Shown: one piece after another, positions 8,023 to 64,000 of the stretch | Position numbering within the stretch: position 1 is the stretch's first letter | How the letters are laid out: each line of letters opens with the position of its first letter | Origin: an uncultured Alphaproteobacteria bacterium | Lineage (GTDB): Bacteria; Pseudomonadota; Alphaproteobacteria; Rhizobiales; Xanthobacteraceae | Assembly: GCA_963724735.1 (NCBI GenBank) | Contig: CAVRVX010000015.1 | Location: 10,081 to 74,080 of the forward strand | Direction: 5' to 3' | Length of the DNA stretch: 64,000 bases | Made by a program: the position numbers and the translations under genes | Notes under the pieces: generated by a model | What the model saw: the letters and a program-made list of their open reading frames with translations, nothing else | Told to the model about the DNA's origin: nothing | Database searches by the model: none

Positions 8023-9290
8023 TGTTCAGCCCGGACACATGACTGACGGGTGTTCGGGGACATCGCTGACACGTCATCATTGCATGGAATCAGCCGCGAT
8101 GGAGGCGATCCATGCCATGGCAAGAGGTGTCGGTTATGGAGCAGCGTCGCGAGTTTGTGAGATTGGCGATGCAGGAAGGGATCAACCGACGGGAACTGTG
8201 CCGGCGGTTCGGGATCAGTCCTGATGTGGGCTACAAGTGGTTGCGGCGCTGGGTTGCGGGCGATCGGGAATTGGCTGACCGCTCGCGCCGCCCGCTTGTG
8301 AGCCCGGCCCGCAGCGAGCCCGCGATCGAGGCGGCGGTGCTGGCGGTGCGCGATGCGCATCCGGCCTGGGGCGCGCGCAAGATCGCTCGCTGTCTGGAGC
8401 GGGATGGACTTGCCCCGCCTGCGCGCTCGACGACGCATGCGATTTTACGCCGCCATGGCCGCGTCGAACCGCCGGCCGGGACGCCCGGCCAGCCTTATCG
8501 GCGGTTCGAGCGGGAGGCGCCCAACCTGCTGTGGCAGATGGACTTCAAGGGCCGCGTGGCTCTCATCGGCGACGGGGCCTGCCATCCGCTGACCATCGTG
8601 GACGATCACTCGCGCTATGCGCTGTGCCTTGCGGCCTGCGGCGATGAGCAAGGCCGCACCGTGCAAGGCCATCTGGAGCAGACGTTCCGCCGCTATGGGC
8701 TGCCCGAGAGCTTCTTCGTCGATAACGGCTCGCCTTGGGGCGATGCCTCGGGCGAGCACTTCACGCGGCTCGGAGTCTGGCTGCTCAAGCTCGGCATCAA
8801 GCTCATCCACAGCCGGCCGTATCATCCGCAGAGCCGCGGCAAGAACGAGCGCTTCCACCGCACCCTCAAGGCCGAGGTGTTCGCGATGCGCGCGTTCCGC
8901 AGGCTCATCGACGTCCAACGCGCCTTCGATCAATGGCGCGGGGTTTACAATCTCGAACGGCCGCACCAGGCGCTGAGCCAAGAGCCGCCGGCAAGCCGCT
9001 ATCGGCCGAGCGACCGCGCGATGCCGGATCGTCTTCCCCAGATCGAATATGATGAGCATGAGATCGTGCGCACGGTCCCTGCCACCAAGAACTACGTCAG
9101 CTTCAAGGGACGGCTGTGGCCGGTTCCACAAGCCTTCCGCGGCGAGCGCGTCGCCATCCGGCCTCTCTCCACGGACGGCCAATACGGCATCTTCTTCGCC
9201 GCCCACCAGATCGCAGCCATCGACTTGACCAATCGGAAAAGTGTCAGTCATCTCCCCGAACAGGTGTCAGCTATCTCCCCGGACTGAACA
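8023..9290 (+). mobile_element. IS481-family insertion sequence
   Basis: TGT...ACA ends. About 50-bp imperfect terminal inverted repeats (tgttcagcccggacacatgactgac... vs reverse complement tgttcagtccggggagatagctgac...) with repeated CTGAC sub-motifs. Confidence 0.92.
8112..9287 (+). CDS. IS481-family transposase
   Basis: MPWQEVSVMEQRREFV HTH start; WQMDFKG, VDDHSRY, DNG and GKNERFHRTLK form the rve DDE core. Confidence 0.93.
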   Translation: MPWQEVSVMEQRREFVRLAMQEGINRRELCRRFGISPDVGYKWLRRWVAGDRELADRSRRPLVSPARSEPAIEAAVLAVRDAHPAWGARKIARCLERDGLAPPARSTTHAILRRHGRVEPPAGTPGQPYRRFEREAPNLLWQMDFKGRVALIGDGACHPLTIVDDHSRYALCLAACGDEQGRTVQGHLEQTFRRYGLPESFFVDNGSPWGDASGEHFTRLGVWLLKLGIKLIHSRPYHPQSRGKNERFHRTLKAEVFAMRAFRRLIDVQRAFDQWRGVYNLERPHQALSQEPPASRYRPSDRAMPDRLPQIEYDEHEIVRTVPATKNYVSFKGRLWPVPQAFRGERVAIRPLSTDGQYGIFFAAHQIAAIDLTNRKSVSHLPEQVSAISPD

Positions 9291-9468
9291 AAAAGCGGGC
9301 GATCCAGTAAACACAAACGCTCTCCGTGATTACTGGATGCCCCGCTTCCGCGCGCCTCCGCGGGGCATGACCACTGGGGATGAAAGTGGAACGATCCAAG
9401 CCGAAATCATCACGCGCTAACGGACCGCTAGACCGACCCCGATTTAATCTGAACGGAATTCACGGTGG

Positions 9469-44545: not shown

Positions 44546-44559
44546 TTGACATCGATCAA
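44546..44559. promoter_or_regulatory. FNR/FixK-like box upstream of the ABC transporter operon
   Basis: TTGAC-ATCG-ATCAA, one mismatch to TTGAT-N4-ATCAA. Confidence 0.55.
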
Positions 44560-44604: not shown

Positions 44605-44817
44605 GTCTCGTCTCTAGGTCGGCGGCCGGGGTGCAATCGATCGGGAGCGTCATGACGCCGCGTACCGGCATGGCATCACCCGCGAGCCGCCGGCATCGAA
44701 ACATCTTGGAGAGCCCTATTGATTTCACTCGCGGGCGGCGCGACTGAATCGTCCCGACAACGGCGCCGGACGCGAGCGCGACGTCGTCAACCGGAAAGCC
44801 GAAGCAGGGAGGAAGGC

Positions 44818-45990
44818 ATGGCAAGGCTGCTACTCGCCGCGGCGTTCGCGGCAGTTCTGATAGCGTCGGCGGCGGCTCAGGAGCCCATCAAGATCGGATT
44901 CATCTCGACCTTCTCGGGCCCCAGCGGCGGGCTGGGCCAGGAGCTTCTCGACGGCTTCAAGCTGGGCCTGAAGAAACTCGACAACAAGCTGGGCGGGCGG
45001 CCGGTCGAATTGATCCAGGGCGACGACCAGGCGAAGCCCGATGTCGGACGCCAGGTCGCCGACAAGATGATCGAGCGCGACCGCGTGCCGATTCTCACCG
45101 GCATCAACTTCTCGAACGTGATGCTGGCGGTGGCCAAGCCCGCACTCGACGCCGGCGTGTTCGTGATCAGCCTCAATGCCGGGCCCTCGCAATATGCCGG
45201 CGCGCAATGCCATCCGCACTACTTCACCGCCTCGTTCCAGAACGACACGGCGCCCGAGGCGATGGGAATTTACATGCAGAGCAAGGGCATCAAGCGCGTC
45301 TACCTGATGGCGCCGAATTATCCGGCGGGAAAAGACTTCCTCGCCGGCTTCAAACGCTACTTCAAGGGCGACATCGTCGACGAGGTCTATACCGGCTTCG
45401 GCCAGCTCGACTACGCCGCCGAGATCGCCCAGTTGCGCGACAAGAAGCCGGACGCGGTGTTCTTCTTCTATCCCGGCGGAATGGGCATCAACTTCGTTAA
45501 GCAATATTCGCAGGCCGGGTTGAAGAAAGACATCCCGCTCTACGGACCGTCGTTCTCGCTCGACCAGACCGTCCTGCCGGCGATGGGCGATGCGGCGGTC
45601 GGCGCCTTCGCCTCGACATTCTGGACCGAAGGCTTCGACAACCCCGCAAGCAAGACCTTCGCCGCCGATTTCGAGACCGAGTACGGCCGCATTCCCTCGC
45701 CGAACGCGGCGCAGGCCTACGACACGGCCTTCATCATCGATGCCGCGCTCAGGGCGATCGGCGGCAAGATCGAGGACAAGGCGGCGTTCCAGAAGGCGTT
45801 GGAGAACGTCAAATTCGACTCGGTGCGCGGCAACTTCAAATTCAACAAGAACCATTATCCCATCCAGGATTTCTACCTGGCCGAAATCGAAAAGGATCAA
45901 AAGGGCCGGCCGGTGATGGTGAAGCGCAGCCTGATCGTGCGCGACCACGCGGACGCCTACGCCAAAGACTGCAAGATGCCGGCGGGTTGA
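44818..45990 (+). CDS. ABC transporter substrate-binding protein, paralog of 34094..35278
   Basis: GGGAGGA RBS and signal peptide; KIGFISTFSGP, DDQAKPDVGRQ, GINFSNV and GQLDYAAEIAQLR shared with the paralog. Confidence 0.9.
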   Translation: MARLLLAAAFAAVLIASAAAQEPIKIGFISTFSGPSGGLGQELLDGFKLGLKKLDNKLGGRPVELIQGDDQAKPDVGRQVADKMIERDRVPILTGINFSNVMLAVAKPALDAGVFVISLNAGPSQYAGAQCHPHYFTASFQNDTAPEAMGIYMQSKGIKRVYLMAPNYPAGKDFLAGFKRYFKGDIVDEVYTGFGQLDYAAEIAQLRDKKPDAVFFFYPGGMGINFVKQYSQAGLKKDIPLYGPSFSLDQTVLPAMGDAAVGAFASTFWTEGFDNPASKTFAADFETEYGRIPSPNAAQAYDTAFIIDAALRAIGGKIEDKAAFQKALENVKFDSVRGNFKFNKNHYPIQDFYLAEIEKDQKGRPVMVKRSLIVRDHADAYAKDCKMPAG

Positions 45991-51171: not shown

Positions 51172-51247
51172 GGGTGGGGCCATGCGCGGCGGTTCGCTCT
51201 GCATTTCTCGGACTGAGAAATCGGTCGCCGCCCGCGAACACGCCGGA

Positions 51248-51904
51248 TCATCCGCCGGCAGGCAGCGGCGGAAAACGCGCGAGCGCGGCGATCACCTCGC
51301 TGTCGCTCGTCTGGCGGAAATCCGAATAGAAGAATCCAATTGCGCCGAAGTCGTCGTAGTCTTCCAGGCAGACCACCTCGTCCGCTTCGTCGCGCATTGC
51401 GACGAGCGTCTCGGTCGGCGCGACCGGCACGGCAAGGATGAGCTTCTTCGGCCCGCGCAGCCGCAAGGCGCGCAAGGCGGCGCGAGTCGTGGCGCCGGTC
51501 GCAATGCCGTCGTCGATCACGATGGCGACACGGCCGGCGACGTCGACGCGCGGGCGCGTCCCGAGATAGCGCTCGCGCCGCCGTTCGATCTCGACAAGCT
51601 CCTCGGCGCAGACGGCCTGGAGCTTCGCTTCGCTCACGCCGGTGAGCCGGATCACGTCTTCGTTGCGCACGATGATCGGCGCGGCGCCGTCGACCACGGC
51701 GCCCATCGCGAGTTCGGGTTGGAACGGAACGCCGAGCTTGCGCACGAGCACGAGGTCGAGCGGCGCGCCGAGCGCGGCGGCGACCTCGGCCGCGACCGGC
51801 ACCCCGCCGCGCGGCAGCGCCAGCACGACCGGCCGTTCGTTCTTGTAGGCGGCGAGCGCGGCCGCTAGCTGGCGTCCGGCGTCCGCACGATTCCTGAACG
51901 GCAT
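51248..51904 (-). CDS. Type I phosphoribosyltransferase (Rv2030c N-terminal-like)
   Basis: FRNRADAGRQLA, ALPRGGVPVA, VRKLGVP and VIDDGIATGAT PRPP loop. Confidence 0.88.
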   Translation of the reverse strand: MPFRNRADAGRQLAAALAAYKNERPVVLALPRGGVPVAAEVAAALGAPLDLVLVRKLGVPFQPELAMGAVVDGAAPIIVRNEDVIRLTGVSEAKLQAVCAEELVEIERRRERYLGTRPRVDVAGRVAIVIDDGIATGATTRAALRALRLRGPKKLILAVPVAPTETLVAMRDEADEVVCLEDYDDFGAIGFFYSDFRQTSDSEVIAALARFPPLPAGG

Positions 51905-51950
51905 GGCATGCCTCCCCCCGCTTCCGGCGCGCTGCGGTTCGCCCTCTTGT

Positions 51951-52580
51951 TCACACTGCGTCGACCAGCAGCACGTCGAGCTTCTTAAGCGACGACCGTG
52001 TGTCCGCCACCGAATTATCGACGTCGATGCCGCGGCACGCCCCCTCGATCACGACCACGTCGAAGCCGATGCGGCGCGCATCCTCGGCCGAGTAGCGCAC
52101 GCAGAAATCGAAGGCGAGCCCGGCGATGAAGACCTGCGAGAACCCGCGTTCACGCAAATAACCCGCAAGTCCGGTCGGCGTCTTGTGGTCATTCTCATAG
52201 AAAGCGGAATAGGAATCGATCTCGCGCCGGAACCCCTTGCGAAGGATCAGCTCGGCATGCGGGATCAAGAGCTCGGAATGAAAGGCCGCCCCGAACGTGG
52301 CCTGCACGCAATGGTCGGGCCACAAGATCTGCGGCCCGTATGCGACGGTGATCGCCTGATAGGGCGCATGGCCCGGATGGGCCGAAGCGAACGAATGATG
52401 GCCAGGCGGATGCCAATCCTGGGTCAGCACGACATGGCGGAACCGCGAGGCGTGGCGGTTGACCGCCGGGACCACTTCGTGACCGCGGGTCACCGGCAGC
52501 GCGCCGCCGGGGCAGAAATCGTTCTGGACATCAACGACGATGAGGACGTCATTGTCGGTAATCGATATCGGCCCGCTCAT
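51951..52580 (-). CDS. pncA: Nicotinamidase/pyrazinamidase
   Basis: VDVQNDF, QDWHP.GH, WPDHC, RKG...DSYSAF and GLAFDFCV. Confidence 0.92.
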   Translation of the reverse strand: MSGPISITDNDVLIVVDVQNDFCPGGALPVTRGHEVVPAVNRHASRFRHVVLTQDWHPPGHHSFASAHPGHAPYQAITVAYGPQILWPDHCVQATFGAAFHSELLIPHAELILRKGFRREIDSYSAFYENDHKTPTGLAGYLRERGFSQVFIAGLAFDFCVRYSAEDARRIGFDVVVIEGACRGIDVDNSVADTRSSLKKLDVLLVDAV

Positions 52581-52634
52581 GGTCGGCGCTCCGCTCACGC
52601 ACAGCCTATTCAATTCTCCGCGCCCGCGGGAGCC

Positions 52635-52648
52635 TTGAGCCAGATCAA
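52635..52648. promoter_or_regulatory. FixK/FNR box between divergent pncA and prs
   Basis: TTGAG-CCAG-ATCAA. Confidence 0.7.
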
Positions 52649-52744
52649 CGTTTCCGGCGGGCCGTTGAGCGAGCATCCTAACGGATTTCTGAGCCCCGAT
52701 CGATCCACGCGCGGCGGCCGCGTTGACGTATGGACGGTTCCGTC

Positions 52745-53723
52745 GTGACCTCCCTTGCTCTGTTCGCCCTCAATGCGACGGCCGACCTCGGCCGCGCGAT
52801 CGCGCAGGAACTATGGGTCACGCTCGCGCCCCACGAGGAACGCGAATTCGAGGACGGCGAGCACAAAGCGCGCCCGCTCGAACTCGGTCGAGGGCGCGGA
52901 CGCCTATGTGATCCAAAGCCTGCACAGCGGCCCCTCCCAGAGCGCCGCCGACAAGCTCGTCCGCCTGTTGTTTTTTATCGGCGCGCTCAAAGATGCCGGC
53001 GCGGCGCGGGTGACGGCGGTGACGCCCTATCTCTGCTATGCGCGCAAGGACCGGCGTACCAAGGCGCGCGATCCGGTGACCACCCGGTATCTTGCAACGC
53101 TGTTCGAAAGCGTCGGGACCGACACGATCGTCGCGCTCGACGTGCACAATCCCGCGGCGTTCGAGAACGCCTTCCGTGGCCGCACGATCGCGGCGACGGC
53201 GGCGCCACTGTTCGTTGATTACGCCAAGCGGCTGGCCGACCGGCCGCTCGCCGTCATCTCGCCCGATGCGGGCGGCGCCAAGCGGGCGGAGATTTTCCGC
53301 GAGGCGCTGGAGAAAGCGCGCAACGAACCGATCGGCAAGGGTTTCGCGGAAAAGCACCGCAGCTCCGGCGTCGTCTCCGGCGACCTGTTCGTCGGCGACG
53401 TGGCGGGCGCGACGGCGCTCGTCATCGACGATCTCATCAGCACCGGCACAACGCTCGTGCGCGCCGCAAAGGCGGCGCGTCAGGCCGGCGCGCGCCGGGT
53501 GATCGCGATGGTGACGCACGGCCTGTTCATGCCCGGCGCCGAAAAGGCGATCGCCGATCCGGCGCTCGACCAGTTGGCGGTCACCGACGCGGTTCCTGCC
53601 TTCCGGCTTGTCTCCGACGCCGCGCGCGAGAAAGTCGAAGTGCTGCCGGTTGCGCCGTTGCTCGCCGAGATCATCCGCCGATTGCACGCAAGGCGAAGCC
53701 TCGCCGACCTGCAGATCCTCTGA
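52745..53723 (+). pseudogene. prs: Ribose-phosphate pyrophosphokinase with a +1 frameshift near 52881
   Basis: EFEDGEHKARPL continues in a shifted frame as SVEGADAYV; YLCYARKDRR, DVHN, SPDAGG and DDLISTGTT. Confidence 0.8.
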
Positions 53724-54795
53724 GCATCGCATCGAGCCGCCATGCGTCGGCCGCGACAAGATGCAAGTAATCGCGCGCCTGCGCCGGCCATTTCTCCGGC
53801 GTTCGCACGTCTTTCTCGAACAGGTGCGCAACGGCAAGTCGCGCGCGCAGCGTCGCCCGGTGGCACCGATAGAAGGCGAACAGTGCGGCCGGAGGCGCAT
53901 CGCGGACGGCCCGCACCAGCCGGCGGCGCAGATACCGCGCGACCCATGCCGCGCCCAGCCGCTCGCATTCCAGCGTCAGGAAGGCGATTTCGTCGAACGG
54001 GTCGTTGGCGCGCAGCTTGTCGTTGAATTCGAGGCAATCGATGATACGCGGCTCGCAGCCGAGCCAGATGTGCTCGGGCCGCAGGTCGCCATGCGCGTCG
54101 ACGATATGGCCGGAGGCGGCGCGCGCGGCGAGCAGCGAGCCGAAGCGTGCGACAAACCGCTCCTGGACGCCATCGATGAAGCTGGCGAGCCCCGCCGGCA
54201 CTTGTGCGCGCGGATCGGACAGACCGCGCCGATTGTCGGCAATGCTCTTCCGCCAGTCGGCGAGATGAGCCGCCCCGGTCATGCGGATGGGCGCCGCGTG
54301 GCGATAGAAGTGCGCAAGCAACGTCACCAGCCGATCGAGGGCGCGCTCGTCGACCCGATGCGCGGCGATCGCGTGGTCCAGCATGCAGCGCTCATCCAAG
54401 CGGCGCATCACGACCAGCCAGTCGACCACAACGCCGCTGCCGGCAAGCGCCAGCCCATGCCGCGCAGCAGTCAGGGGCAGCACGTCGACATAGACATCGC
54501 CGGCGAGGCGCCGGTTCAGCCGGAGCTCCGCGCGGCAGGCGGTCGCGCGGCGCGCCAGCGTCGAAAAGTCGAGATAGGGAAAGCGCACCGGCTTCTTCAG
54601 CTTGTAGACGCGCGGCCCGGCGAGAAAGACCCATGACATGTGCGTTTCGCGCACGACCACGGCGTCGACGCGATGCGGATATGCATCCGGACGGCTGAGG
54701 AAGGCGACCTTTTCCGCCAGGCTCGCGGCCAACGACGGGCAGACGAAATCCCCCCCAGCCTTGGCGAGGGCTCCAGCCGCGCGCCCCAATGTCAT
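53671..54795 (-). CDS. Aminoglycoside-phosphotransferase-like kinase (Rv2004c N-terminal domain) without the AAA domain
   Basis: ETHMSWVFL, YKLKKPV.FPYLDFST, ELRLNRRLA, HGDLRPEH and IDCLEFN. Confidence 0.8.
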   Translation of the reverse strand: MTLGRAAGALAKAGGDFVCPSLAASLAEKVAFLSRPDAYPHRVDAVVVRETHMSWVFLAGPRVYKLKKPVRFPYLDFSTLARRATACRAELRLNRRLAGDVYVDVLPLTAARHGLALAGSGVVVDWLVVMRRLDERCMLDHAIAAHRVDERALDRLVTLLAHFYRHAAPIRMTGAAHLADWRKSIADNRRGLSDPRAQVPAGLASFIDGVQERFVARFGSLLAARAASGHIVDAHGDLRPEHIWLGCEPRIIDCLEFNDKLRANDPFDEIAFLTLECERLGAAWVARYLRRRLVRAVRDAPPAALFAFYRCHRATLRARLAVAHLFEKDVRTPEKWPAQARDYLHLVAADAWRLDAMLRGSAGRRGFALRAIGG

Positions 54796-55016
54796 TCTCG
54801 CTTGAACGAAAGCAGCGCGCCGTCGAGCTGATCGAACGCCGCCTCGTTCAGGCGGTCCATGAATTCCCCCACGCTCGTCGCCCGATCGAGTTCGCGCCGC
54901 TCGAGGTATTTCCAGATGTCGCCGCAGGCCGCCGCGAAAGACTCGGCATCTCCGATTTCGCAAACCTGCCGACAGATCGTTTCGCCTTTCTTGGTCAGGG
55001 TGAGGGTGACCTTCAT
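54792..55016 (-). CDS. Small hypothetical protein (74 aa)
   Basis: ATG at 55016 after GAGG; its stop overlaps the kinase start (ATGA). Confidence 0.65.
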   Translation of the reverse strand: MKVTLTLTKKGETICRQVCEIGDAESFAAACGDIWKYLERRELDRATSVGEFMDRLNEAAFDQLDGALLSFKRE

Positions 55017-55114
55017 GCCCAAGCCTCGCGGGTCGCGGGGGAACAGACGAACCGCGCGCGACAAGCCCCGCTCGCCTCCCCCGGGCGCGAGCGGAGCCGA
55101 ATAGCCTAGCGGGC

Positions 55115-55657
55115 CTATTTCGCGTCGATGGCGATCTTCTTTTCCGGCTTCTGCGCCTCGGTCCCTTTGGGGAGCCTGATCGTCAGCACGCCCTTCTCGA
55201 AGCTTGCTTGAATCTTGTCCTCGTCGATCCCTTCCGGCAATTCGAACGAGCGCTGGAACGAGCCGAACCGCCGCTCGGAAATATAATAGTCCTTTTCCTT
55301 CTCCTCTTTCTCTTCCTTCTTCTCACCCTTGATCGTGAGCATGCCGTTGGCAAGCTTCACGTCGATATTGCTGGAGTCCATGCCCGGCAATTCCGCGGTG
55401 ATCTCGAATTCCTTGTCGCGCTCGCAGACGTCCACCGCCGGCGCCTTTCCCCAACCTTCCGGGAGCGGCCACGACGGCCGGAAGTCCAGCAACGACCGAC
55501 CGAATGGGCGGCCCAGGCCGAACCCGCGGCCGAAATCCTCGAACATCCGATCGACCTGGCGGCGGAGCGATTCGAACGGCTCCCATTCCACCGGCGCTCT
55601 GCGTTCCGGCGCCTGATCCTCTTTTTTCACTGCGATGTTGCCCTTTGCTTCAGCCAT
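55115..55657 (-). CDS. Hsp20/alpha-crystallin family protein
   Basis: PAVDV, AELPGM, ERRFGSFQRSF and GVLTIRLPK; GGAGAA RBS. Confidence 0.93.
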   Translation of the reverse strand: MAEAKGNIAVKKEDQAPERRAPVEWEPFESLRRQVDRMFEDFGRGFGLGRPFGRSLLDFRPSWPLPEGWGKAPAVDVCERDKEFEITAELPGMDSSNIDVKLANGMLTIKGEKKEEKEEKEKDYYISERRFGSFQRSFELPEGIDEDKIQASFEKGVLTIRLPKGTEAQKPEKKIAIDAK

Positions 55658-55731
55658 AGCACTTCTCCTATTCGCCTCCCCCGCCGCTTGTTTGATATTT
55701 TCTTACGTAAGACCGGTGTGACCGCCGACCT

Positions 55732-55745
55732 TTGAGAACGATCAA
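55732..55745 (-). promoter_or_regulatory. FixK/FNR box upstream of hsp20
   Basis: Minus strand TTGAT-cgtt-CTCAA, 75 bp upstream of the ATG. Confidence 0.7.
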
Positions 55746-55807
55746 AAACACGCCGCGCTGAAAATGGTTCCTCCAAGAAAGAGCGCTGCAAGCGCTCGCA
55801 AGCCGCG

Positions 55808-57238
55808 TCATCCCTTAATGCAAATCACCGGCCTGACCCGCGCCACGCGGCGGGCAAGGCCGGCCTGTTCAGCCGCCTCGCAAACTGCCCCCACGTCCTT
55901 GTAGGCCCCCGGCGCCTCTTCGGCGACCCCGCGGCTCGATGGACTGCGGATCAGGATGCCCTCCCGCGCGAGATCATCGACGACCTTGCGTCCGCTCCAT
56001 CGCTTCAGCGCCGCGTGCCGCGACATGGCCCGCCCGGCTCCATGGCAGGCGGAGGAAAACGCCTTCTCCTCGCCGGTCGCGGTTCCCACCAGCACATAGG
56101 AGGCGGTGCCCATGCTGCCGCCGATCAGGACCGGCTGGCCGATCGAACGAAGCGGCACGGGCAGACTGGGGTGGCCGGGACCGAAGGCGCGGGTGGCCCC
56201 TTTCCGATGGACGAACACATCCCGCCTGCGACCGTCGATCTCGTGGACTTCCTCCTTGCAGGTGTTGTGCGAGACGTCGAACAGGAGATCGAGCGGCGCC
56301 TGCGGAAAGAAGCGCCGCACCGCCTGGCGAGCGAAGTGGCCAAGAATCTCGCGGTTGGCCAGCGCACAATTGATGGCCGCGCGCATGGCCCCGAGATAAC
56401 GCTCGCCGAGTTCCGACCGGATCGGCGCGCAGGCGAGATCGCGGTCGGGCAGTTCGATGCCGAGTCCGGCCGCCGCGACGGCCATCTCCTTGAGGTATTC
56501 GCTGCCGATCTGATGGCCCAGGCCGCGCGACCCGCAGTGGATCGTCACCAGCACGTCATCTGTCGCAAGCCCGAAGGCATCGGCTGCCGCGGCGTCGAAG
56601 ATCTCAGCCACCACCTGCACTTCGAGATAGTGATTGCCGGAGCCGAGCGTGCCCATTTCGCGGTGCTGCCGGTGCTTGGCCTTGCTCGAGACGCACTCGG
56701 GACGGGCGCCGGCCGTCGTGCCGCCCTCCTCGATGCGGGCGAGGTCGGCCGCCTCGCCCAATCCGCGCTCGATAGCCCAGGCGGCGCCGCCCGCCAGCAT
56801 GTGATCCATTTCGATTGGATCGAGGCTGATCGCGCCCTCGCTGCCGACGCCAGCCGGAATGTCGCGAAAGAGCTGGTCTGCCAAAGCCTTCTGCACGGGC
56901 GCAAGCTCGCGCGCGGTGAGCCCCGTGAGCATCGTCCGCACGCCGCAGGATATGTCGAAGCCAACCCCGCCCGCTGAAACCACGCCCCCGGCGGCGGGGT
57001 CGAAGGCGGCGACGCCGCCGATGGGGAAGCCATAGCCCCAATGGGCGTCCGGCATGGCATAGGAGGCCTTCACGATGCCGGGCAGCCGGGCGACATTGGC
57101 GGCCTGTTCGTAGACCTTGTCGTCCATATCGCGGATGAGCGCCTCATCCGCAAAAATAATGGCCGGCACGTACATGCCGGCCACCGGCTCGATTCGCCAT
57201 GCGGTTTCGTCAATCCGTGTGAGCCGCGCCGGATCCAT
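55808..57238 (-). CDS. rtcB: RtcB family RNA ligase (long form)
   Basis: PDAHWGYGFPIGG, GFDISCG, GTLGSGNHY, HCGSRG, HN, HRKGATRA, GSMG and HGAGR. Confidence 0.93.
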   Translation of the reverse strand: MDPARLTRIDETAWRIEPVAGMYVPAIIFADEALIRDMDDKVYEQAANVARLPGIVKASYAMPDAHWGYGFPIGGVAAFDPAAGGVVSAGGVGFDISCGVRTMLTGLTARELAPVQKALADQLFRDIPAGVGSEGAISLDPIEMDHMLAGGAAWAIERGLGEAADLARIEEGGTTAGARPECVSSKAKHRQHREMGTLGSGNHYLEVQVVAEIFDAAAADAFGLATDDVLVTIHCGSRGLGHQIGSEYLKEMAVAAAGLGIELPDRDLACAPIRSELGERYLGAMRAAINCALANREILGHFARQAVRRFFPQAPLDLLFDVSHNTCKEEVHEIDGRRRDVFVHRKGATRAFGPGHPSLPVPLRSIGQPVLIGGSMGTASYVLVGTATGEEKAFSSACHGAGRAMSRHAALKRWSGRKVVDDLAREGILIRSPSSRGVAEEAPGAYKDVGAVCEAAEQAGLARRVARVRPVICIKG

Positions 57239-57244
57239 GGCCCG

Positions 57245-57712
57245 TTAAACGTCGACGATGCATCCGGCCGACCACATCCCCGTCGAGTCGCGCGCCACCC
57301 GGAGCTCAGTCAGCGTCGCCGCCTTCGGCTCGCAGGCTGGAGCGTGGCGCGGCTGGACGCTTTCGCCCCAAGCCGTCCCGTAAAGTCGCCGCCCCCTGAT
57401 GGAGACGGAGAAACGGCCGAACAGCATGCGGCGCGCGGCCATCTCGTAAATGATCGCATCGAGCCATTCGACGAGCAGCAACTCGTCGTCAGGCGCCTCG
57501 CAGACCACCGTGACCGCGATTTTCGGGGTGACAGGCACGTCCGTCACGACCGCCGCCAGCGCGAGCGCCGCCTGCTCGAAAGCCTCTTCGAGGCTCAGTC
57601 CATAGCCTCGCACGCCGATATCGGCGCCATGCGCGAAGTGCTCCCACCCCACCCCGCTGACGCCGTTCTTGCGCACAAGGTCTTCAGTTCGAACGCTTGC
57701 CGGGCTTTCCAT
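57245..57712 (-). CDS. Archease (RtcB activator)
   Basis: WEHFAHGADIG, EAFEQAA, LLVEWLDAIIY, KAATL and C-terminal IVDV; immediately upstream of rtcB. Confidence 0.85.
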   Translation of the reverse strand: MESPASVRTEDLVRKNGVSGVGWEHFAHGADIGVRGYGLSLEEAFEQAALALAAVVTDVPVTPKIAVTVVCEAPDDELLLVEWLDAIIYEMAARRMLFGRFSVSIRGRRLYGTAWGESVQPRHAPACEPKAATLTELRVARDSTGMWSAGCIVDV

Positions 57713-57830
57713 TGTCGTTCTCCATCACCACAATGGCCCTACGCCGAGAGGCCTCTTCGCCCGGCGCGGCCCCGTCATTCGCGCAGTTCGCCGCAAGCCC
57801 ATTCGCCTGAGTTTGCGGAACTCGTTCGCC

Positions 57831-58298
57831 TCAGGAGGAGGCCGCCCGATCGATGCCCTGCGACAATCCTGAAACGACTGGTTTCGCGGTGTTGGCCATC
57901 ATCTTCTGAGTGAACGCCCAGAAATCCTTCCATTGCGCAGCGAATGCCCCGAACTGTCTGCGCGCAAACCCCGTCGACAGACCAACCATGTCGGACGGCG
58001 ATCTCGCCGCCGCCAATTCGCCCGTAAAGTCGAGAATGGCCGACACATTCGTCTGACAGGTCTCGAGGATTTTGCTGTGCAGCCCCGCCGTATCCTTGAC
58101 CGCTACGAAATAGCTCTTCTCCATGGCATCCATGATGGCGTCGACATTGGTGCTCATCCTGCCAAAGCCATCCCGGATCTGCGCGAAACCAGACGCCGCC
58201 GCCAGTTTCACCCCATCGGGGATATCGATGTGCGGGGATCGGCCCGCTGAAAAAGCTGCCTCAGAATCGATTCGCTGTCCTTCCACGAACACCTCCAT
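57831..58298 (-). CDS. Phasin family protein
   Basis: Helical Ala-rich protein with IP..V...A, N....DF...LA.A.SPS and RRQF..F..Q, as in rhizobial phasins. Confidence 0.65.
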   Translation of the reverse strand: MEVFVEGQRIDSEAAFSAGRSPHIDIPDGVKLAAASGFAQIRDGFGRMSTNVDAIMDAMEKSYFVAVKDTAGLHSKILETCQTNVSAILDFTGELAAARSPSDMVGLSTGFARRQFGAFAAQWKDFWAFTQKMMANTAKPVVSGLSQGIDRAASS

Positions 58299-58329
58299 GC
58301 GCCTGCGCGCCTGTGGGGTGGCGCTACTC

Positions 58330-59020
58330 TCAAGCGTGCAGCCGTTTCAGAGCTTTGCGATTGACCAATACTATACGCCGGCAAGTTGGCACTGAGATGG
58401 CAGCTGACGTCTCGAGCTGCGTCAACGTGCGCGAAATCGTTTCAATGGTGAGGCCGAGATAGTCGGCGATGTCCTGCCGCGACATAGGCAGGTCGATGAC
58501 ATCGGCCTCGGCCATCCGCTCGGCCATTTCAAGGAGGAAACAGGCCACCCGTTCTTGCGCGCTGCGAATCAAGAGGAGCATGTGCTCCTGCACACGGCGC
58601 AATTCCTGGGCGGTCAGCGTCCACAACAGGTGCGCAACCTTGTGGTCGGTATCGGCGAGCGTAATCAGCGCGTTGCGCTTGATCACCAGCATCGTCGACT
58701 TGCCGATGGCTTCCGCCGAGCAGTTGTGAACGTCGCCGACGCCAAGGCCGAAGACCGCGCCGGGCAAATAGAAGGCGCTGATCTGACGCCGGCCGTCGTT
58801 CAGAACCTTGTAAGTGCGGGCGGCTCCCGATACGACCTGATAGACGTAATCGGCCGGCTCCCCCTCACCGAAGATTTCCTCGTTGCGGGCGTAGGAAACC
58901 GGCACGCCCATCGATTTCGAGCGACGGCACGCTCGTCCGGTTTGCGTCCGAAGCGGTCCATCGGCGCAAGGGATTGACCGGACGGCTCAGGCTGATGGTT
59001 TGTGAATTTTGCATCAGCAT
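58330..59020 (-). CDS. fixK: Crp/Fnr regulator FixK, with an apparent +1 frameshift at 58915-58917
   Basis: EIFGEGEPADY, DGRRQI.AFYLPG and LPMSRQDIADYLGLTIETISR, with no Fe-S Cys cluster. The ATG at 59020 is 109 nt upstream of the in-frame ATG at 58911; deleting one A joins them. Confidence 0.85.
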
Positions 59021-59128
59021 GGCTTAGGCTCCGCCACAAGGACCAATCATAAAGACAAGTTATGGACGCCGAGCCGCTGCGAAAACTCGTGTCGTGTCCC
59101 TAAGTAAACCCCCGGAGGAGGAAACGTC

Positions 59129-60679
59129 TTGGCGGACAAGTCAAAGGCGCCTTCGATATCAGAAATCGAGCTCCCTTCGCGGACGAGCGTTGCCCGGCTG
59201 CCAAGCCTCGCAACGACCCCGCAGCGGGCTGTCTGGTATGTCGGCGCTGCCGTGCTCGCGGGCGCCGCATTTGTCGTCCATGTGCTCGTGTCCTCGCTCA
59301 CCATCCCGGAAGCCGACCTGCTCTTCATGGTTCCCGCCATCCTGGTGGCGGGCGCGCTGGGCGGGCTCGGGCCGGGACTTCTGGCGACGACCCTCTGCGT
59401 CGGCCTGCACCTGCTGTCGCCCGGCGGCTCCTTGGCCTTATCCAGCGCCAATCTCCTCACGGTAGGGGGGTTCACCGTCATCGGGGTCGGGATGGCCCTG
59501 TTCGGCGAACGGCTGCGCCTCGCCCGTCTGCAGGCCGCGACGCGAACGAACGACCTGCTGGCGCGGGAGGCCTATCTACAATCGCTGCTCGCCTCGGTTC
59601 CCGACGCCGTCATCATTATCGATGCGCATGGCATCATCCGTTCCTTCAGCAGCGCTGCGGAGCGGCTGTTCGGCTATTCCGCAAGCGAGGCAATCGGCCA
59701 GAACGTGCGGATGCTGATGCCGGTGCCCGACCGAACGGCGCACGACGGCTATATCCGCCGTTATCTGCAGACCGGGGAGCCGCGCATTATCGGGATCGGA
59801 CGCGTCGTGGTGGGCGAACGCAAGGACGGCTCGACCTTTCCGATCGCGCTGTCGGTCGCCGAAATGAAATCCGACGGCCGCCGACTGTTCACCGGCTATA
59901 TCCGCGACCTGACCGAACGGCAGGAGACCCAGGCACGTCTCGAGCAACTGCAATCCGAAGTCGTCCATATTTCGCGTCTGACCGCCATGGGCGAGATGGC
60001 CTCGGCGCTTGCCCACGAACTCAATCAGCCGCTTTCGGCGATCGCCAATTACCTGACCGGATCGCGGCGACTGCTGGCCGATCCCTCCGAGGAGAATCTC
60101 CAACTCGTGCGCGCGGCGATTGACACAGCGGTGGAGCAGTCGCTGCGCGCGGGCCAGATCATCGGCCGATTGCGCGACTTTGTGGCCCATCGCGAGCCCG
60201 AAAAACGGATCGAGAGCTTGAGGAAGCTGATCGAGGAGGCGAGCGCGCTCGCGCTCGTCGGCGCAAAAGTGCTCGGAATTCGCGTGCGGCTGCGCTTCGA
60301 CCCGGCGATCGACCGGGTCATCGTCGACAAGGTGCAAATCCAACAAGTCTTGCTCAATCTGATGCGCAATGCGATCGAGGCGATGGAAAACGCCGACAGG
60401 CGCGAGCTGACCGTCAGCACGGCGACCGGTCCGGACGGCGCCGCCCTGGTCGAGGTCGCCGACACCGGCTGCGGGATTTCGCGAGAAATAGCCAACCAGC
60501 TGTTTGTGCCCTTCGCCACAACCAAGCCACACGGAATGGGCGTCGGGCTTTCGATATCGAGGGCGATCATCGAGAGCCATGAAGGGCGCATCTGGGCGGA
60601 AGCCAACCCTGGCGGGGGCACGGCGTTTCGGTTTACATTGCAAGCGCTGGTGGACGAGGAGCTTGGCGATGTCGGCTGA
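59129..60679 (+). CDS. fixL: Membrane-anchored heme-PAS oxygen sensor kinase FixL
   Basis: TM domain; PAS with HDGYIRRY and [14 protein letters not shown]; AHELNQP H-box; GMGVGL. Confidence 0.9.
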
Positions 60680-61313
60680 CCCTGTCGTTCATGTCATTGA
60701 CGACGATGAAGCGGTCCGGCGGTCGCTCGACTTCCTGCTGCGGAGCGCGCGGTTCAAGACACGCACCTACGAGAACGCGCTCGCCTTCCTTAACGCGCTG
60801 CCCGACATCCCTTCCGGCTGCATCGTGACCGACGTAAAAATGCCGGAGATGAGCGGGGTCGAGCTGTTGCGTCACTTGCGCCAGAAGAAGCTGCGCCTGC
60901 CGGTCATCCTCATCACCGGGCATGCCGACGTCCCGATGGCCGTTGAGGCGATGAAGAACGGCGCTGTCGATTTCCTCGAAAAGCCCTTCGACGACGAGGT
61001 GCTGCTCAACGCCGTGCGCTCGGCGCTCGCCGCACTCGAGAACGCCTCGCAGCGCGACCTCGAGCGCGTCGAGTTGCAGCAACGCTTCGCCAGCCTCTCC
61101 CGACGCGAACGCGAAGTGCTGGAAGGGCTGGTCGCAGGGAAACCGAACAAGACCATTGCGTTCGATCTCGGCATCAGCCCGCGCACGGTCGAGATTTACC
61201 GCGCCAATGTCATGACCAAGATGCGCGCGGTCAGTCTTTCCGAGTTGGTGCGAATGACCCTGATCGCAGGCTTCCCATCCGATCAGGAGTTGGCGCGACG
61301 CTCGCTCGGCTAG
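60669..61313 (+). CDS. fixJ: Response regulator FixJ
   Basis: [32 protein letters not shown] and Lux[21 protein letters not shown]. Confidence 0.93.
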
Positions 61314-61330
61314 GGGTGCGGCGCATCTTT

Positions 61331-61344
61331 TTGAGCAGCGTCAA
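61331..61344. promoter_or_regulatory. FixK/FNR-like box downstream of fixJ with no intact target gene
   Basis: TTGAG-CAGC-GTCAA. Confidence 0.45.
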
Positions 61345-61400
61345 AGCTTTTCTGCAGGCTTGGCGTTTCCTCCCCTTAACAGCTTGGCGTACGACCGCAG

Positions 61401-61631
61401 GTGCGACGCGAGACGACGATCGGATGCTCGTCCGCGCGCAGTCGGCGGGTCGCGCTTGTCCAGGCCCGACCCACGGCCATATCCGCGACTCTGATTAGAG
61501 CTGAAGCGCGCGGTGTATTGACGCCGATCCGGCTCCATCCCTCCGACAACGGCAGAGTGTTTTATCGGCGCGACCAGGTCGGCGGCGTAGCGGGAGGCGG
61601 CGATGTCGCCCCAGGCGGGAGGGCGACATGA
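61401..61631 (+). pseudogene. Degenerate MerR/excisionase-like HTH
   Basis: SATLIRAEARGVLTPIRL...GRVFYRRDQV resembles the Xis-type wing. The N terminus is disrupted and the stop overlaps the next ATG. Confidence 0.4.
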
Positions 61632-62649
61632 AAATTTGGGTCAAGCTCAATAAGAATTTTGCCAACTTTCCCCTCGCGCGCGATCCTCGGCGGGGACAGG
61701 CCGGCGAGTGGCGGAGAGGACACAAGCGCGAAGACGGCTGCTTGAAACAGTGGTGGTGGAGGACTTTGCCGGGCGAGCGGAAAATCGTATTGCGCTTGCC
61801 TCACTCCTTCGAGGGGAAGCGGCGCTGTCCAACCGCGTTCGACATGAACGTGCTGTTCCTCGTCCTAAGCAAGGCGCAAGCAACCAATTCGAACAAGGTC
61901 GAGTTCGCCTCGCATGCCGCAATGCTGGCCGCGCTCGGGGTTGGCCGACGCCAGAGCCGCAACCGCCAGCGACTCACCGAGTCGCTGCAGCTCTGGAACG
62001 CTTGTCCCTCATATTTCGCGAGTGCTGGTACCGGCCCAAGCAGCACCCCACGCTGTACTGCGGGCAAGTCACACCCGGCCGTCCTGCCGAGAAGGGCCAA
62101 TCGATCGGCTTGCCGCCGCCGTTCAAAGAATGCGACATTTCGCCTTCGGGCAAGATCTCCATCACGCTGAGCAAAGCCTGGTTCCCTCACCTGGGCGGCG
62201 ACGCCGGCTTTATCTGCCGCCTCAACCTGCCGCTGCCGGCCAGCGCAGCCGCGCAGAATGTCGCGCTGTGCGAAAGCGCATGGTCGAATGACGGCGTGGG
62301 GAAAATCCGAGGCAGTGAGCCGAAGCTGAAGAACAACGCGGCGAACTACGCGCGCAAAATCGGCACACGCCGATCGCGGCTCCCTGCCGCGATTGCTGCG
62401 GCCTGCGCATATTTCAAAGAACAGGGTGAAAAGGCCGTGCCGTTTTGGATCGGCCGCAGCCGCAGCGAATTTGTGATTTTGCGAACGAAGGCCAAAAAAT
62501 CCGAACTCGCCGGGCAATCGGAGCTGGACGAGCCGAAGCCCAGGCCCAGGCCGCCATTGAAGCCGAGGCCCGTCTCGAACCGGCCGGTGTTCGAGGAGGA
62601 CTGCTCGGCCGAGGCGGAGGGGGGCGAAATCGATCTTGACTACCCATGA
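61628..62649 (+). pseudogene. Putative replication initiator (Rep/TrfA-like winged helix) with a -1 frameshift at about 61996
   Basis: PTAFDMNVLFLVL...FASHAAMLAALG...NRQRL..SL.LW joins ERLSLIFRECWY in the next frame, giving about 340 aa. An iteron-like array follows directly. Confidence 0.5.
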
Positions 62650-62668
62650 TTTTGACACGTCAGGCGCG

Positions 62669-62824
62669 CCTCTCGGCTCCGCAAACGGTTGGGTACCTCT
62701 CGGCTCCGGCAGTGAGGTACCTTTCGGCAAATAGTGAGGTACCTCTTGGCTCGGCGGTGAGGTACCTTTCGGCTCGACGGTGAGGTACCTTTCGGCTCCG
62801 CATGAGGTACCTTTCGGCTCCGCA
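62669..62824. repeat. Iteron-like array: six 22-23 bp direct repeats plus one partial copy
   Basis: Units start at 62690, 62713, 62735, 62758, 62781 and 62803; consensus TGAGGTACCTTTCGGCTC(n)4-5. An AT-richer stretch follows. Confidence 0.85.
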
Positions 62825-63070
62825 ATCCACTCCAAGTTTGCTATAACATATTGTGGTTGCTCAAGAATTCGCGGCGACCGGATTTGCCTACGATAGATAT
62901 ACGAGAGATTGTACGAGAGAAAGGCTTACGAACGAAAAAACGAAAGAATGGAAAAATCGAGCGCCGCCGGCTTCGCTCCCTTGGAGCCCAAGGAAAGGAT
63001 CACTCTAACGAAGAACCACTCCAACACAAGAACCCACCCCAACAAAAAAGGGGACATGCCCCCTTGAAAT

Positions 63071-63150
63071 GAGAGAGAGAGAGAGAGAGAGCGAGGAGTT
63101 CGCAGCGGCTTCACTCCCTCGCTCCGCTCCGCTCCGCTTCGCTCCGCTCG
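63071..63150. repeat. Simple repeats (GA)10 and (GCTCC)6-like
   Basis: gagagagagagagagagaga at 63071-63090; gctcc gctcc gctcc gcttc gctcc gctcg at 63121-63150. Confidence 0.9.
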
Positions 63151-63192
63151 TTTGTGTCTCGCTTTTTTCCTTCATCTCCGAGAGAGGAATTA

Positions 63193-63318
63193 CCACCCCA
63201 ATGAAAAGGAGAAGTGGCTTTCCACCCCAATGAAAAGAGAAGTGAGCTTACATTTCGCGCTTGGTTCGCCGGCCAGGCATAGTAGTTTTGTTCCGCCCGG
63301 CCGGGCATAGTAGTTTTG
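63193..63318. repeat. Two pairs of direct repeats
   Basis: CCACCCCAATGAAAAG at 63193 and 63222; CCGGCC(A/G)GGCATAGTAGTTTTG at 63269 and 63297. Confidence 0.85.
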
Positions 63319-63401
63319 GCCAAACCTAAAGAGAATTTGCCTGCTTGCCCGTCTTAAGCTAACGTCGCAGCATTGCCCAAAAAGAACAGAGTGAAACCTA
63401 A

Positions 63402-64000
63402 GGGGACTTCGAATAATTGGCTGCGGTCGTGTGCTGTGCGAATCTCGTTGGCGCGAGTTGATTCCGCGGAGCGAGACGATGGGACAATTGGGGTTTTTTG
63501 ACGCTGAGCGGCGGTTGGCGGCGTTGTTGGAGAAGGGCGATCCGCTGGAGACGATCGGAGGGCTGGTTCCGTGGGAGAGTTTCCGCGCCGACATCGAGGC
63601 GGTCGTGCTGACGCCGGAGGAGGCGAAGAAGAGCAAGGCCGGTCGCAAGCCGCTCGACGCGCTTGTTGTGTTCCGCATGCTAGTCCTGCAGGCGTTGTAC
63701 AATCTGTCGGATGAGCAGATCGAGTATCAGGTGCGCGACCGGCTGTCGTTCACGCGGTTTCTCGGGCTTGGCTTTGAGGATGGCATCCCGGACGGCACGA
63801 CCCTATGGCTATTCCGCGAGAAACTGGCGCAGGCCGGGCTGATCGACAAGCTGTTTGACCAGTTTGACCGACAGCTCAACGCCAAGGGCTACATTGCACG
63901 CGGCGGGCAGATGGTAGACGCGAGCATTGTGCCGGCGCCGAAGCCGCGCAACACGCGTGAGGAGAACGAGGTGCTCAAGCGCGGCGAGACGCCTCCGGCG
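63402..64000 (+). mobile_element. IS5-family element, left end (runs off the window)
   Basis: CTAA target-like sequence at 63398-63401 followed by GGGGACTTCGAATAA, then the transposase. Confidence 0.8.
63479..64000 (+). CDS. IS5-family transposase (3' end outside the window)
   Basis: MGQLGFFD...GRKP...LQALYNLSDEQIEYQVRDRLSF.RFLGL...PDGTT...VDASIV. Confidence 0.92.
   Translation, partial: MGQLGFFDAERRLAALLEKGDPLETIGGLVPWESFRADIEAVVLTPEEAKKSKAGRKPLDALVVFRMLVLQALYNLSDEQIEYQVRDRLSFTRFLGLGFEDGIPDGTTLWLFREKLAQAGLIDKLFDQFDRQLNAKGYIARGGQMVDASIVPAPKPRNTREENEVLKRGETPPA

Follow-up and report, generated by a model that had tools for sequence, protein, structure and literature searches.

An archease–rtcB RNA ligase pair behind fixK in a putative low-oxygen regulatory island of an uncultured alphaproteobacterium

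A 64,000-nucleotide stretch of contig CAVRVX010000015.1 (called the window throughout), from an uncultured alphaproteobacterium of the family Xanthobacteraceae, carries adjacent genes for the RNA ligase RtcB and its partner protein archease. Both genes lie on the minus strand with intact open reading frames (ORFs). The archease gene (57245–57712) encodes 155 amino acids with a full match to Pfam PF01951 (profile positions 1–136, E = 1.5e-33), and rtcB (55808–57238) encodes 476 amino acids that match PF01139 across profile positions 1–426 of 426 (E = 5e-166). Six nucleotides (nt) separate the archease stop codon from the rtcB ATG, and a GGAG sequence resides 9 nt upstream of the archease ATG. 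The original prediction, made from the sequence alone, described archease immediately upstream of a full-motif RtcB, with both genes co-oriented behind fixK and a phasin gene. Gene order and domain matches agree with each part of this description.

The RtcB protein aligns end to end with that of Pyrococcus horikoshii (1uc2/4dwq; E = 4e-152), and the catalytic motifs GFDISCGVR, GSGNHYLEV, HCGSRGLGHQ, VSHNTCK and ACHGAGR are all conserved in this alignment. We take these motifs to supply the metal ligands Asp95/Cys98, Asn202/His203, His234 and His329 as well as the His404 nucleophile (P. horikoshii numbering). NCBIfam models assign the ligase to the archaeal type (589 bits), and it falls below the cut-offs of both the Escherichia coli-type model (171 bits versus 407) and the PrfH-linked release_rtcB model that represents RtcB2 (135 bits versus 271.8). 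Similarly, the archease matches its P. horikoshii counterpart (4n2p; E = 8e-20) and retains the N-terminal H-x-A-D-I-G tip motif, wherein H-G-A-D-I-G pairs with the H-T-A-D-I-G of the acidic metal-binding tip in 4n2p. Judged by these residues and the short intergenic gap, both proteins are catalytically complete and their genes are close-coupled in translation.

The pair is part of a 10.2-kilobase (kb) segment (51241–61424) that is syntenic in two close relatives (loci L003 and L004) at roughly 80% nucleotide identity. This synteny, together with the fact that the L003 flanks differ from those of the window, indicates that the segment behaves as a module. Its minus-strand order is fixK, phasin, archease, rtcB, a hairpin, a FixK box, hsp20, a 74-amino-acid ORF and a gene for a protein of about 358 amino acids. 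Beyond the last of these lie prs, encoded on the plus strand, another exact box, and then pncA and an orphan phosphoribosyltransferase gene.

The fixK ORF (58330–58911, minus strand) encodes a 193-amino-acid Crp/FNR regulator with cNMP_binding and HTH_Crp_2 domains and no N-terminal Cys cluster. Its product most closely matches the Caulobacter-type FixK model of NCBIfam (E = 4e-73) and is 91–92% identical to its counterparts in L003 and L004. The phasin-family gene that follows (57831–58298, minus strand) encodes 155 amino acids and matches Pfam Phasin_2 (E = 1e-11) as well as the NCBIfam phasin_2 model (E = 1.7e-23), the latter below its cut-off. Divergent from fixK on the plus strand are fixL (59129–60679), whose PAS, HisKA and HATPase_c domains define a sensor histidine kinase (best match sens_FixL_Rhizob, E = 6e-171), and fixJ (60666–61313), a response regulator with REC and LuxR/GerE helix–turn–helix (HTH) domains whose probable start (MSADPVV...) overlaps the end of fixL. 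The best NCBIfam matches of all three proteins are Fix models, and all fall below the equivalog cut-offs. The sequence features of a FixL–FixJ–FixK cascade are present, namely a PAS kinase, a REC–LuxR regulator and a Crp/FNR protein that lacks the Fe–S Cys cluster. Alignment with L003 and L004 reveals a further 36 codons of fixK lying out of frame upstream of the ORF (58912–59022, minus strand). In these relatives FixK is 229 amino acids long and begins at a conserved ATG (59020) preceded by GGAG, whereas in the window one extra base near 58915–58925 (GAAATCG versus GCCTCC in L003/L004) breaks the frame. This +1 frameshift may have arisen by recent mutation or from an assembly error of the homopolymer type.

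Exact matches to the FixK/FNR box, defined here as TTGA-N6-TCAA, are concentrated in the module. Specifically, the sequence TTGATCGTTCTCAA (55732–55745) is centred 81 nt upstream of the hsp20 ATG, a second box (52635–52648) falls where pncA and prs diverge, and a third (61331–61344) is found at the module edge, 18 nt downstream of the fixJ stop codon, where L003 and L004 also carry a box. The whole genome contains 69 exact boxes (17 expected), or about one per 68 kb, and three of these fall in the 10-kb module. Elsewhere in the genome the box precedes hemN, an ALA (5-aminolevulinate)-synthase-like gene, fixG and a gene for heme-copper oxidase subunit I (COX1, ccoN/fixN-like). Such genes constitute the classical FixK/FnrN regulon, and their association with the box identifies TTGA-N6-TCAA as the FixK/FNR operator of this organism. 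Within the island, hsp20 and pncA/prs have boxes placed as FixK control requires. The claim of an oxygen-sensing locus is therefore upheld by a FixLJ–FixK island with three exact boxes.

Several other box-associated regions were observed in the same genome. One cluster (C13:245000–259100) contains the ccoN/fixN-like, fixG and ALA-synthase-like genes with three boxes, beside a Crp/FNR paralogue that is 36% identical to FixK. A second hsp20 (C19:28971–29492), 85% identical to the first, lies roughly 1.5 kb from an exact box. Within the window, an additional exact box (44546–44559) precedes a periplasmic binding-protein gene (44719–45990) by about 160 nt, which hints that this ABC transporter might also be oxygen-regulated.

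Direct control of the pair by FixK is not supported in this genome: the regions that precede archease, phasin and fixK hold no FixK box even when one mismatch is allowed. The gaps in the series fixK–phasin–archease–rtcB measure 31, 118 and 6 nt. The 118-nt phasin–archease spacer (57713–57830, minus strand) has no FixK box, sigma-70-like promoter or terminator, and it is only patchily conserved when compared with L003 and L004. Its RNA fold z-score of -0.01 leaves a leader RNA or attenuator unsupported. Indeed, no terminator-like site occurs from fixK to rtcB, and the first one encountered is a GC-rich hairpin with a T-rich tail (55781–55797, minus strand) that begins 10 nt downstream of the rtcB stop codon.

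Upstream of fixK is a block of roughly 60 nt (59056–59118, minus strand) that is identical in the window, L003 and L004. This block includes GGGGGTTTACTTAGGGAC (59096–59113), which matches the FixJ site of Sinorhizobium meliloti at 10 of 13 positions and carries an exact TAAGTAA core; the experimentally defined S. meliloti site is TAAGTAATTTCCCTTA, as quoted in PMC4999443. The order fixK–(phasin)–archease–rtcB is common to all three genomes, including one in which the phasin gene has decayed. In that genome (L003), phasin is a short remnant (9196–9400) retaining only N- and C-terminal codons, and fixK, archease and rtcB are intact. Because the spacer lacks a box, promoter or terminator and fixK is preceded by an invariant FixJ-like block, the likeliest route of expression for the pair would be read-through from the fixK promoter, within a single FixJ-dependent fixK–phasin–archease–rtcB transcript. 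As no FixK box serves the pair directly, its control by oxygen in this genome would depend on this proposed co-transcription with fixK.

The link to oxygen extends to homologous loci. We compiled 80 related loci (1.18 megabases in total) whose RtcB proteins are 64–88% identical to that of the window. Box counts are position-based, as simple ORF calling gave shadow ORFs in several GC-rich loci. In about 73 of the 80, archease immediately precedes rtcB. These loci contain 109 exact FixK/FNR boxes, versus 6.3 expected from composition and 1–16 for eleven permuted palindromes. Boxes also occur in 18 of 72 operon-upstream regions, where permuted control palindromes score 0–2. The enrichment around homologous pairs is 15- to 20-fold and spans alpha-, beta- and gammaproteobacteria. 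In at least 13 related loci a box precedes archease at class II distance, and in about 10 loci the box centre lies 42–98 nt from the archease start, consistent with class II geometry. In three loci (L037, L040 and L080) the centre is 41.5–42.5 nt upstream of the archease ATG, a spacing at which class II promoters are predicted to give leaderless mRNAs. The original prediction was open to refutation by homologous pairs unlinked to fix genes; instead, FNR/FixK boxes are strongly over-represented around them. The island and the cross-lineage enrichment of boxes are solid observations.

Phylogenetic analysis of RtcB groups the window's protein with those of L003 and L004 (support 100), within an 18-sequence clade (support 99) drawn mostly from Xanthobacteraceae, Nitrobacteraceae and unclassified Alphaproteobacteria. 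Loci bearing a box are scattered across the tree, requiring 15 state changes, which indicates that the association between box and pair is recurrent and does not descend from one inherited event. Adjacency of regulator genes is limited to the closest loci: fixLJ and fixK genes adjoin the pair only in L003 and L004, and L005 has only a FixK-like gene. Conserved adjacency to Crp/FNR genes was sought more widely by using two further paralogues from the window's own genome as queries, and again only L003–L005 were recovered. A separate observation is that the RtcB of L020, from the gammaproteobacterium Billgrantia campisalis (Halomonadaceae), nests within the window's alphaproteobacterial clade (support 99), a placement that suggests horizontal transfer of the pair.

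Across the 80 loci, clustering of genes into families reveals which neighbours recur. The most common is a kinase-fold protein of about 360 amino acids (18 of 80 loci), followed by a phosphoribosyl pyrophosphate (PRPP) synthetase paralogue (15), nicotinate phosphoribosyltransferase (NAPRTase; 14), an orphan phosphoribosyltransferase (PRTase; 13), an AMP-binding/acyltransferase fusion (13) and the nicotinamidase PncA (11). A fusion of the ribosome hibernation factor HPF (S30AE) to a cold-shock domain is present in 11 loci, mostly co-oriented and immediately upstream of archease, and is absent from the window's module. It shares an operon with archease–rtcB in L005, L007, L012, L014, L016, L052 and L075. 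Less frequent families are PolX-PHP (10), an alpha/beta hydrolase (8), CapA (7), DUF72 (7), class II ribonucleotide reductase (RNR; 6) and Hsp20 (6). From this survey we flag the kinase-fold protein and the HPF–cold-shock fusion as likely partners of archease–rtcB.

Other components of well-known RNA-repair systems are missing from this genome, as the original prediction had proposed for its surroundings. Searches of the 4.67-megabase assembly (92% complete) detected just one copy each of RtcB and archease, and no match to RTC cyclase (rtcA, PF01137) or RtcR (PF06956), for both of which controls were positive, or to TROVE/Ro. Rfam finds no Y RNA in the window. The rtcBA genes of E. coli and Salmonella (rsr-yrlBA-rtcBA) are under RtcR and sigma-54 and serve stress-linked RNA repair, not splicing. 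The window's ligase may likewise act in stress-linked repair rather than splicing; it differs from rtcBA in lacking rtcA, RtcR and Ro, in RtcB subtype and in having archease.

The tRNA complement gives no reason to expect splicing. The only tRNA that Rfam detects in the window is an ordinary one, in agreement with the earlier claim that it has no intron, and all 38 genomic tRNA calls are intron-less. A run of aragorn with the -i option made 48 calls with introns of 16–2668 nt in this GC-rich genome, and these were judged to be spurious. The pair itself is accessory: 17 of 151 genomes from the same family have a match, several of these copies are broken, and the three other genomes available from the genus all lack it. 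Together, the accessory distribution and the 38 intron-less tRNA genes disfavour housekeeping functions, tRNA splicing among them.

The pairing of archease with RtcB is neither new nor exotic in bacteria, as Desai et al. (2014, PMC3973293) described archease–rtcB operons from 'diverse bacteria and archaea'. The characterized reactions and in vivo roles of the two proteins all concern RNA (PMC3973293; Desai 2015, PMC4604427). Relative to the operons of P. horikoshii and Thermus thermophilus, the window has the same families, the same archease-then-rtcB order, tight coupling and the catalytic and archease motifs; by analogy, GTP- and Mn-dependent ligation, with archease conferring multiple turnover, is the expected mechanism here as well. 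It differs in host, an aerobic or microaerobic alphaproteobacterium without evident tRNA introns, and in setting, an oxygen-response island in which the pair follows a regulator gene.

Hypoxia is already known to induce an RtcB gene within the DosR regulon of Mycobacterium tuberculosis, whose block 8 (Rv2623–Rv2631) includes Rv2630 and the RtcB gene Rv2631, the latter listed as uncharacterized (PMC5309233). Also in this regulon are Rv0570 (class II RNR), Rv0571c (PRTase), Rv0573c (nicotinamide recycling), Rv0574c (CapA-like), Rv2031c (alpha-crystallin) and Rv0079 (HPF-like) (PMC5309233). Furthermore, RtcB (noted for 'ribosome repair') and Hsp20 are common neighbours of genes for the hibernation factor Balon, of which the hypoxia-induced Rv2629, adjacent to Rv2630 and Rv2631 in block 8, is a homologue (Helena-Bueno et al., PMC10901736). 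At the level of gene families, the parallel between this regulon and the neighbours of the pair is striking: the window likewise has an RtcB gene in a putative hypoxia or dormancy regulon with Hsp20, an orphan PRTase and NAD salvage as companions, and its relatives add class II RNR, CapA and HPF. The likeness is one of gene families and suggests a functional parallel rather than membership, as the window uses FixLJ–FixK with Crp/FNR boxes instead of DosRST and has no Balon or HPF gene in the module. Against this background the pair would be a regulatory variant, with putative FixLJ–FixK/FNR wiring and a place directly behind fixK, of a type already described, in which archease–RtcB resides in a hypoxia or dormancy regulon.

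A proteobacterial parallel is the lxa locus of Burkholderia cenocepacia, which is activated by low oxygen and was likened by its authors to the DosR regulon (Sass et al. 2013, PMC3721108). Both are islands associated with anoxic persistence in which an FNR-type regulator occurs with alpha-crystallin, polyhydroxyalkanoate (PHA)-related and nucleotide-metabolism genes. At 10 kb the window's island is far more compact, USP genes are absent from it, and PMC3721108 names no RtcB or other ligase. RtcB and archease are likewise absent from the supplements of two published FixK/FNR regulon predictions (PMC4999443 and PMC2908626). Our literature search found no paper linking RtcB or archease to FixK or FNR, and none that mentions archease together with mycobacterial dormancy.

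We therefore favour, with a probability of roughly 55%, the interpretation that an archease-dependent RtcB RNA ligase operon has been recruited into the alphaproteobacterial low-oxygen FixL–FixJ–FixK regulon. According to this model, low oxygen would cause FixL to phosphorylate FixJ, which would then fire the fixK promoter through the FixJ-site-like element. The fixK transcript would extend via phasin into archease–rtcB and stop at the hairpin after rtcB, and FixK would switch on hsp20 and the NAD/PRPP genes through their own boxes. Archease would load GMP onto the RtcB histidine to permit multiple turnover, and the ligase would rejoin broken tRNA or rRNA carrying 2′,3′-cyclic-phosphate (or 3′-phosphate) and 5′-OH ends. 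Such repair could preserve the translation machinery in non-growing, energy-poor cells and permit regrowth on re-aeration. A second and compatible rationale for low-oxygen expression would be an oxidation-sensitive Cys–metal active site in RtcB enzymes; the active-site cysteine of metazoan RTCB is reported to be prone to oxidative inactivation (PMC12263435).

The original prediction of hypoxia-triggered repair of cleaved tRNA or rRNA is thus partly supported, because the oxygen link holds in homologous loci beyond the window. The FixLJ–FixK island, the box enrichment and the DosR precedent speak for it, and the lack of a FixK box for the pair and the restriction of regulator adjacency to the three closest loci speak against it. 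Several further findings weigh on the negative side. No exact box accompanies 54 of the 72 homologous operons, and a Crp/FNR gene is nearby in only 3 of 80 loci (L003–L005). The 118-nt spacer could hide an unrecognized promoter, and the frameshifted fixK may encode an impaired regulator, or the assembly may be wrong. Scans of the module and of neighbouring genes identified no substrate, nuclease or toxin partner for the pair. For the mycobacterial comparison, database annotation suggests that Rv2630 may be an archease.

Some of these observations would also fit a history in which an independently or constitutively expressed RNA-repair operon happened to land beside fixK in a mosaic, transferable island and is not controlled by oxygen. 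The absent FixK box, the spacer between phasin and archease, the confinement of regulator-gene neighbours to the closest relatives, the transposase sequence beside the module, the divergent L003 flanks and the accessory distribution of the pair are all compatible with such incidental adjacency. We nonetheless consider it unlikely, since boxes are enriched near homologous pairs and lie directly upstream of a quarter of them, the terminator follows rtcB with none intervening between fixK and rtcB, and the gene order has been kept in three genomes despite phasin decay. There is even less reason to favour a role in biological conflict, wherein the pair would counter anticodon nucleases, ribotoxins or MazF-type toxins, with the island serving as a parking place or with hypoxia-activated toxins as the trigger. 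The module carries no nuclease, toxin–antitoxin or defence genes in Pfam and NCBIfam scans of its proteins, and what recurs beside the pair are genes for metabolism and hibernation rather than for conflict. This reading, which includes the toxin-induced dormancy raised by the original prediction, is improbable even though the distribution of the pair is patchy and E. coli RtcB is reported to reverse MazF cleavage of rRNA (Temmel 2017, cited by PMC10901736).

RtcB can reportedly also join DNA 3′-phosphate ends in vitro, according to the Shuman laboratory, and 10 of 80 loci carry a PolX-PHP gene beside archease–rtcB. These facts would suit a DNA ligase that, with PolX-type enzymes, seals 3′-phosphate/5′-OH breaks in non-replicating cells. 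This proposal is somewhat more improbable still, as polX is absent from the window's module, ribosome-hibernation genes are at least equally frequent neighbours and the characterized roles of the pair, noted above, concern RNA. Least probable is housekeeping tRNA splicing as practised in archaea and eukaryotes. Its appeal lies in the archaeal type of the ligase, which resembles Pyrococcus RtcB about as closely as bacterial enzymes do; set against this are the 38 ordinary intron-less tRNA genes, the spurious appearance of the aragorn intron calls and the absence of the pair from roughly 89% of family genomes, with decay in several.

Beyond recruitment of the ligase operon into the FixL–FixJ–FixK regulon, a broader and considerably more tentative idea is that archease–RtcB is one core component of a widely shared anoxia-survival kit, which would have come under DosR in actinobacteria and, independently, under FNR/FixK in proteobacteria; the ligase would re-ligate the nicked rRNA or tRNA of hibernating ribosomes. 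If so, the remaining parts of the kit would be hibernation factors, Hsp20, NAD/PRPP salvage, class II RNR, PolX and the kinase-fold enzyme, and in the window's lineage the ligase would ride on the fixK transcript itself. Such re-ligation would allow growth to resume after re-aeration without rebuilding of ribosomes, and low-oxygen expression would also suit the oxidation-sensitive active site. The best-studied bacterial RtcB system is E. coli rtcBA, whose natural trigger is unclear. The apparent convergence of two unrelated oxygen-sensing circuits, DosR and FNR/FixK, on archease–rtcB offers a testable setting for bacterial RtcB, namely RNA integrity during anoxic non-growth and resuscitation. 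It suggests that RNA repair belongs to survival without oxygen, as tuberculosis dormancy genes had hinted, and makes the link between RtcB and hypoxia accessible to study in non-pathogenic soil bacteria.

The remaining genes of the module lie downstream of the hairpin that follows rtcB. The hsp20 gene (55115–55657, minus strand) encodes an alpha-crystallin-family protein (PF00011, E = 8e-28). Next on the same strand is the conserved 74-amino-acid ORF (54792–55016), whose homologues adjoin the kinase-like gene in five other loci; the plus-strand ORFs that overlap it have no Pfam match. Its product follows the pattern MKVTLTLTKKGE...DAESF...C.D.W, adjoins the kinase-fold gene in at least six loci and matches no known family.

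The adjacent gene (53671–54747, minus strand) encodes the protein of about 358 amino acids, which has no sequence match in Pfam, NCBIfam or the PDB. An AlphaFold model of this family (pLDDT 91) retrieves 3dxq as the best Foldseek match (E = 2e-6), followed by APH, ChoK and MTR kinases. By predicted fold, therefore, this neighbour would belong among the small-molecule kinases of the APH/choline-kinase type. Invariant residues of the family include E48, T49, H50, K63, K65 and K66 as well as H233, G234, D235, L236 and D251 (L003 numbering; L003:12438–13514).

The far end of the module comprises the prs paralogue for ribose-phosphate diphosphokinase (52755–53723, plus strand), the nicotinamidase gene pncA (51951–52580, minus strand; isochorismatase domain; 188 bits to the NCBIfam nicotinamidase/pyrazinamidase model, cut-off 174) and the orphan phosphoribosyltransferase gene (51248–51904, minus strand; PF00156, E = 1.6e-17). 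At the opposite end, synteny with the relatives ends directly after the box at 61331–61344. The rest of the window (61345–64000) holds ORFs without a Pfam match and a DUF772 transposase fragment (63431–64000). On this side, L003 and L004 carry a second FixJ-like response regulator.

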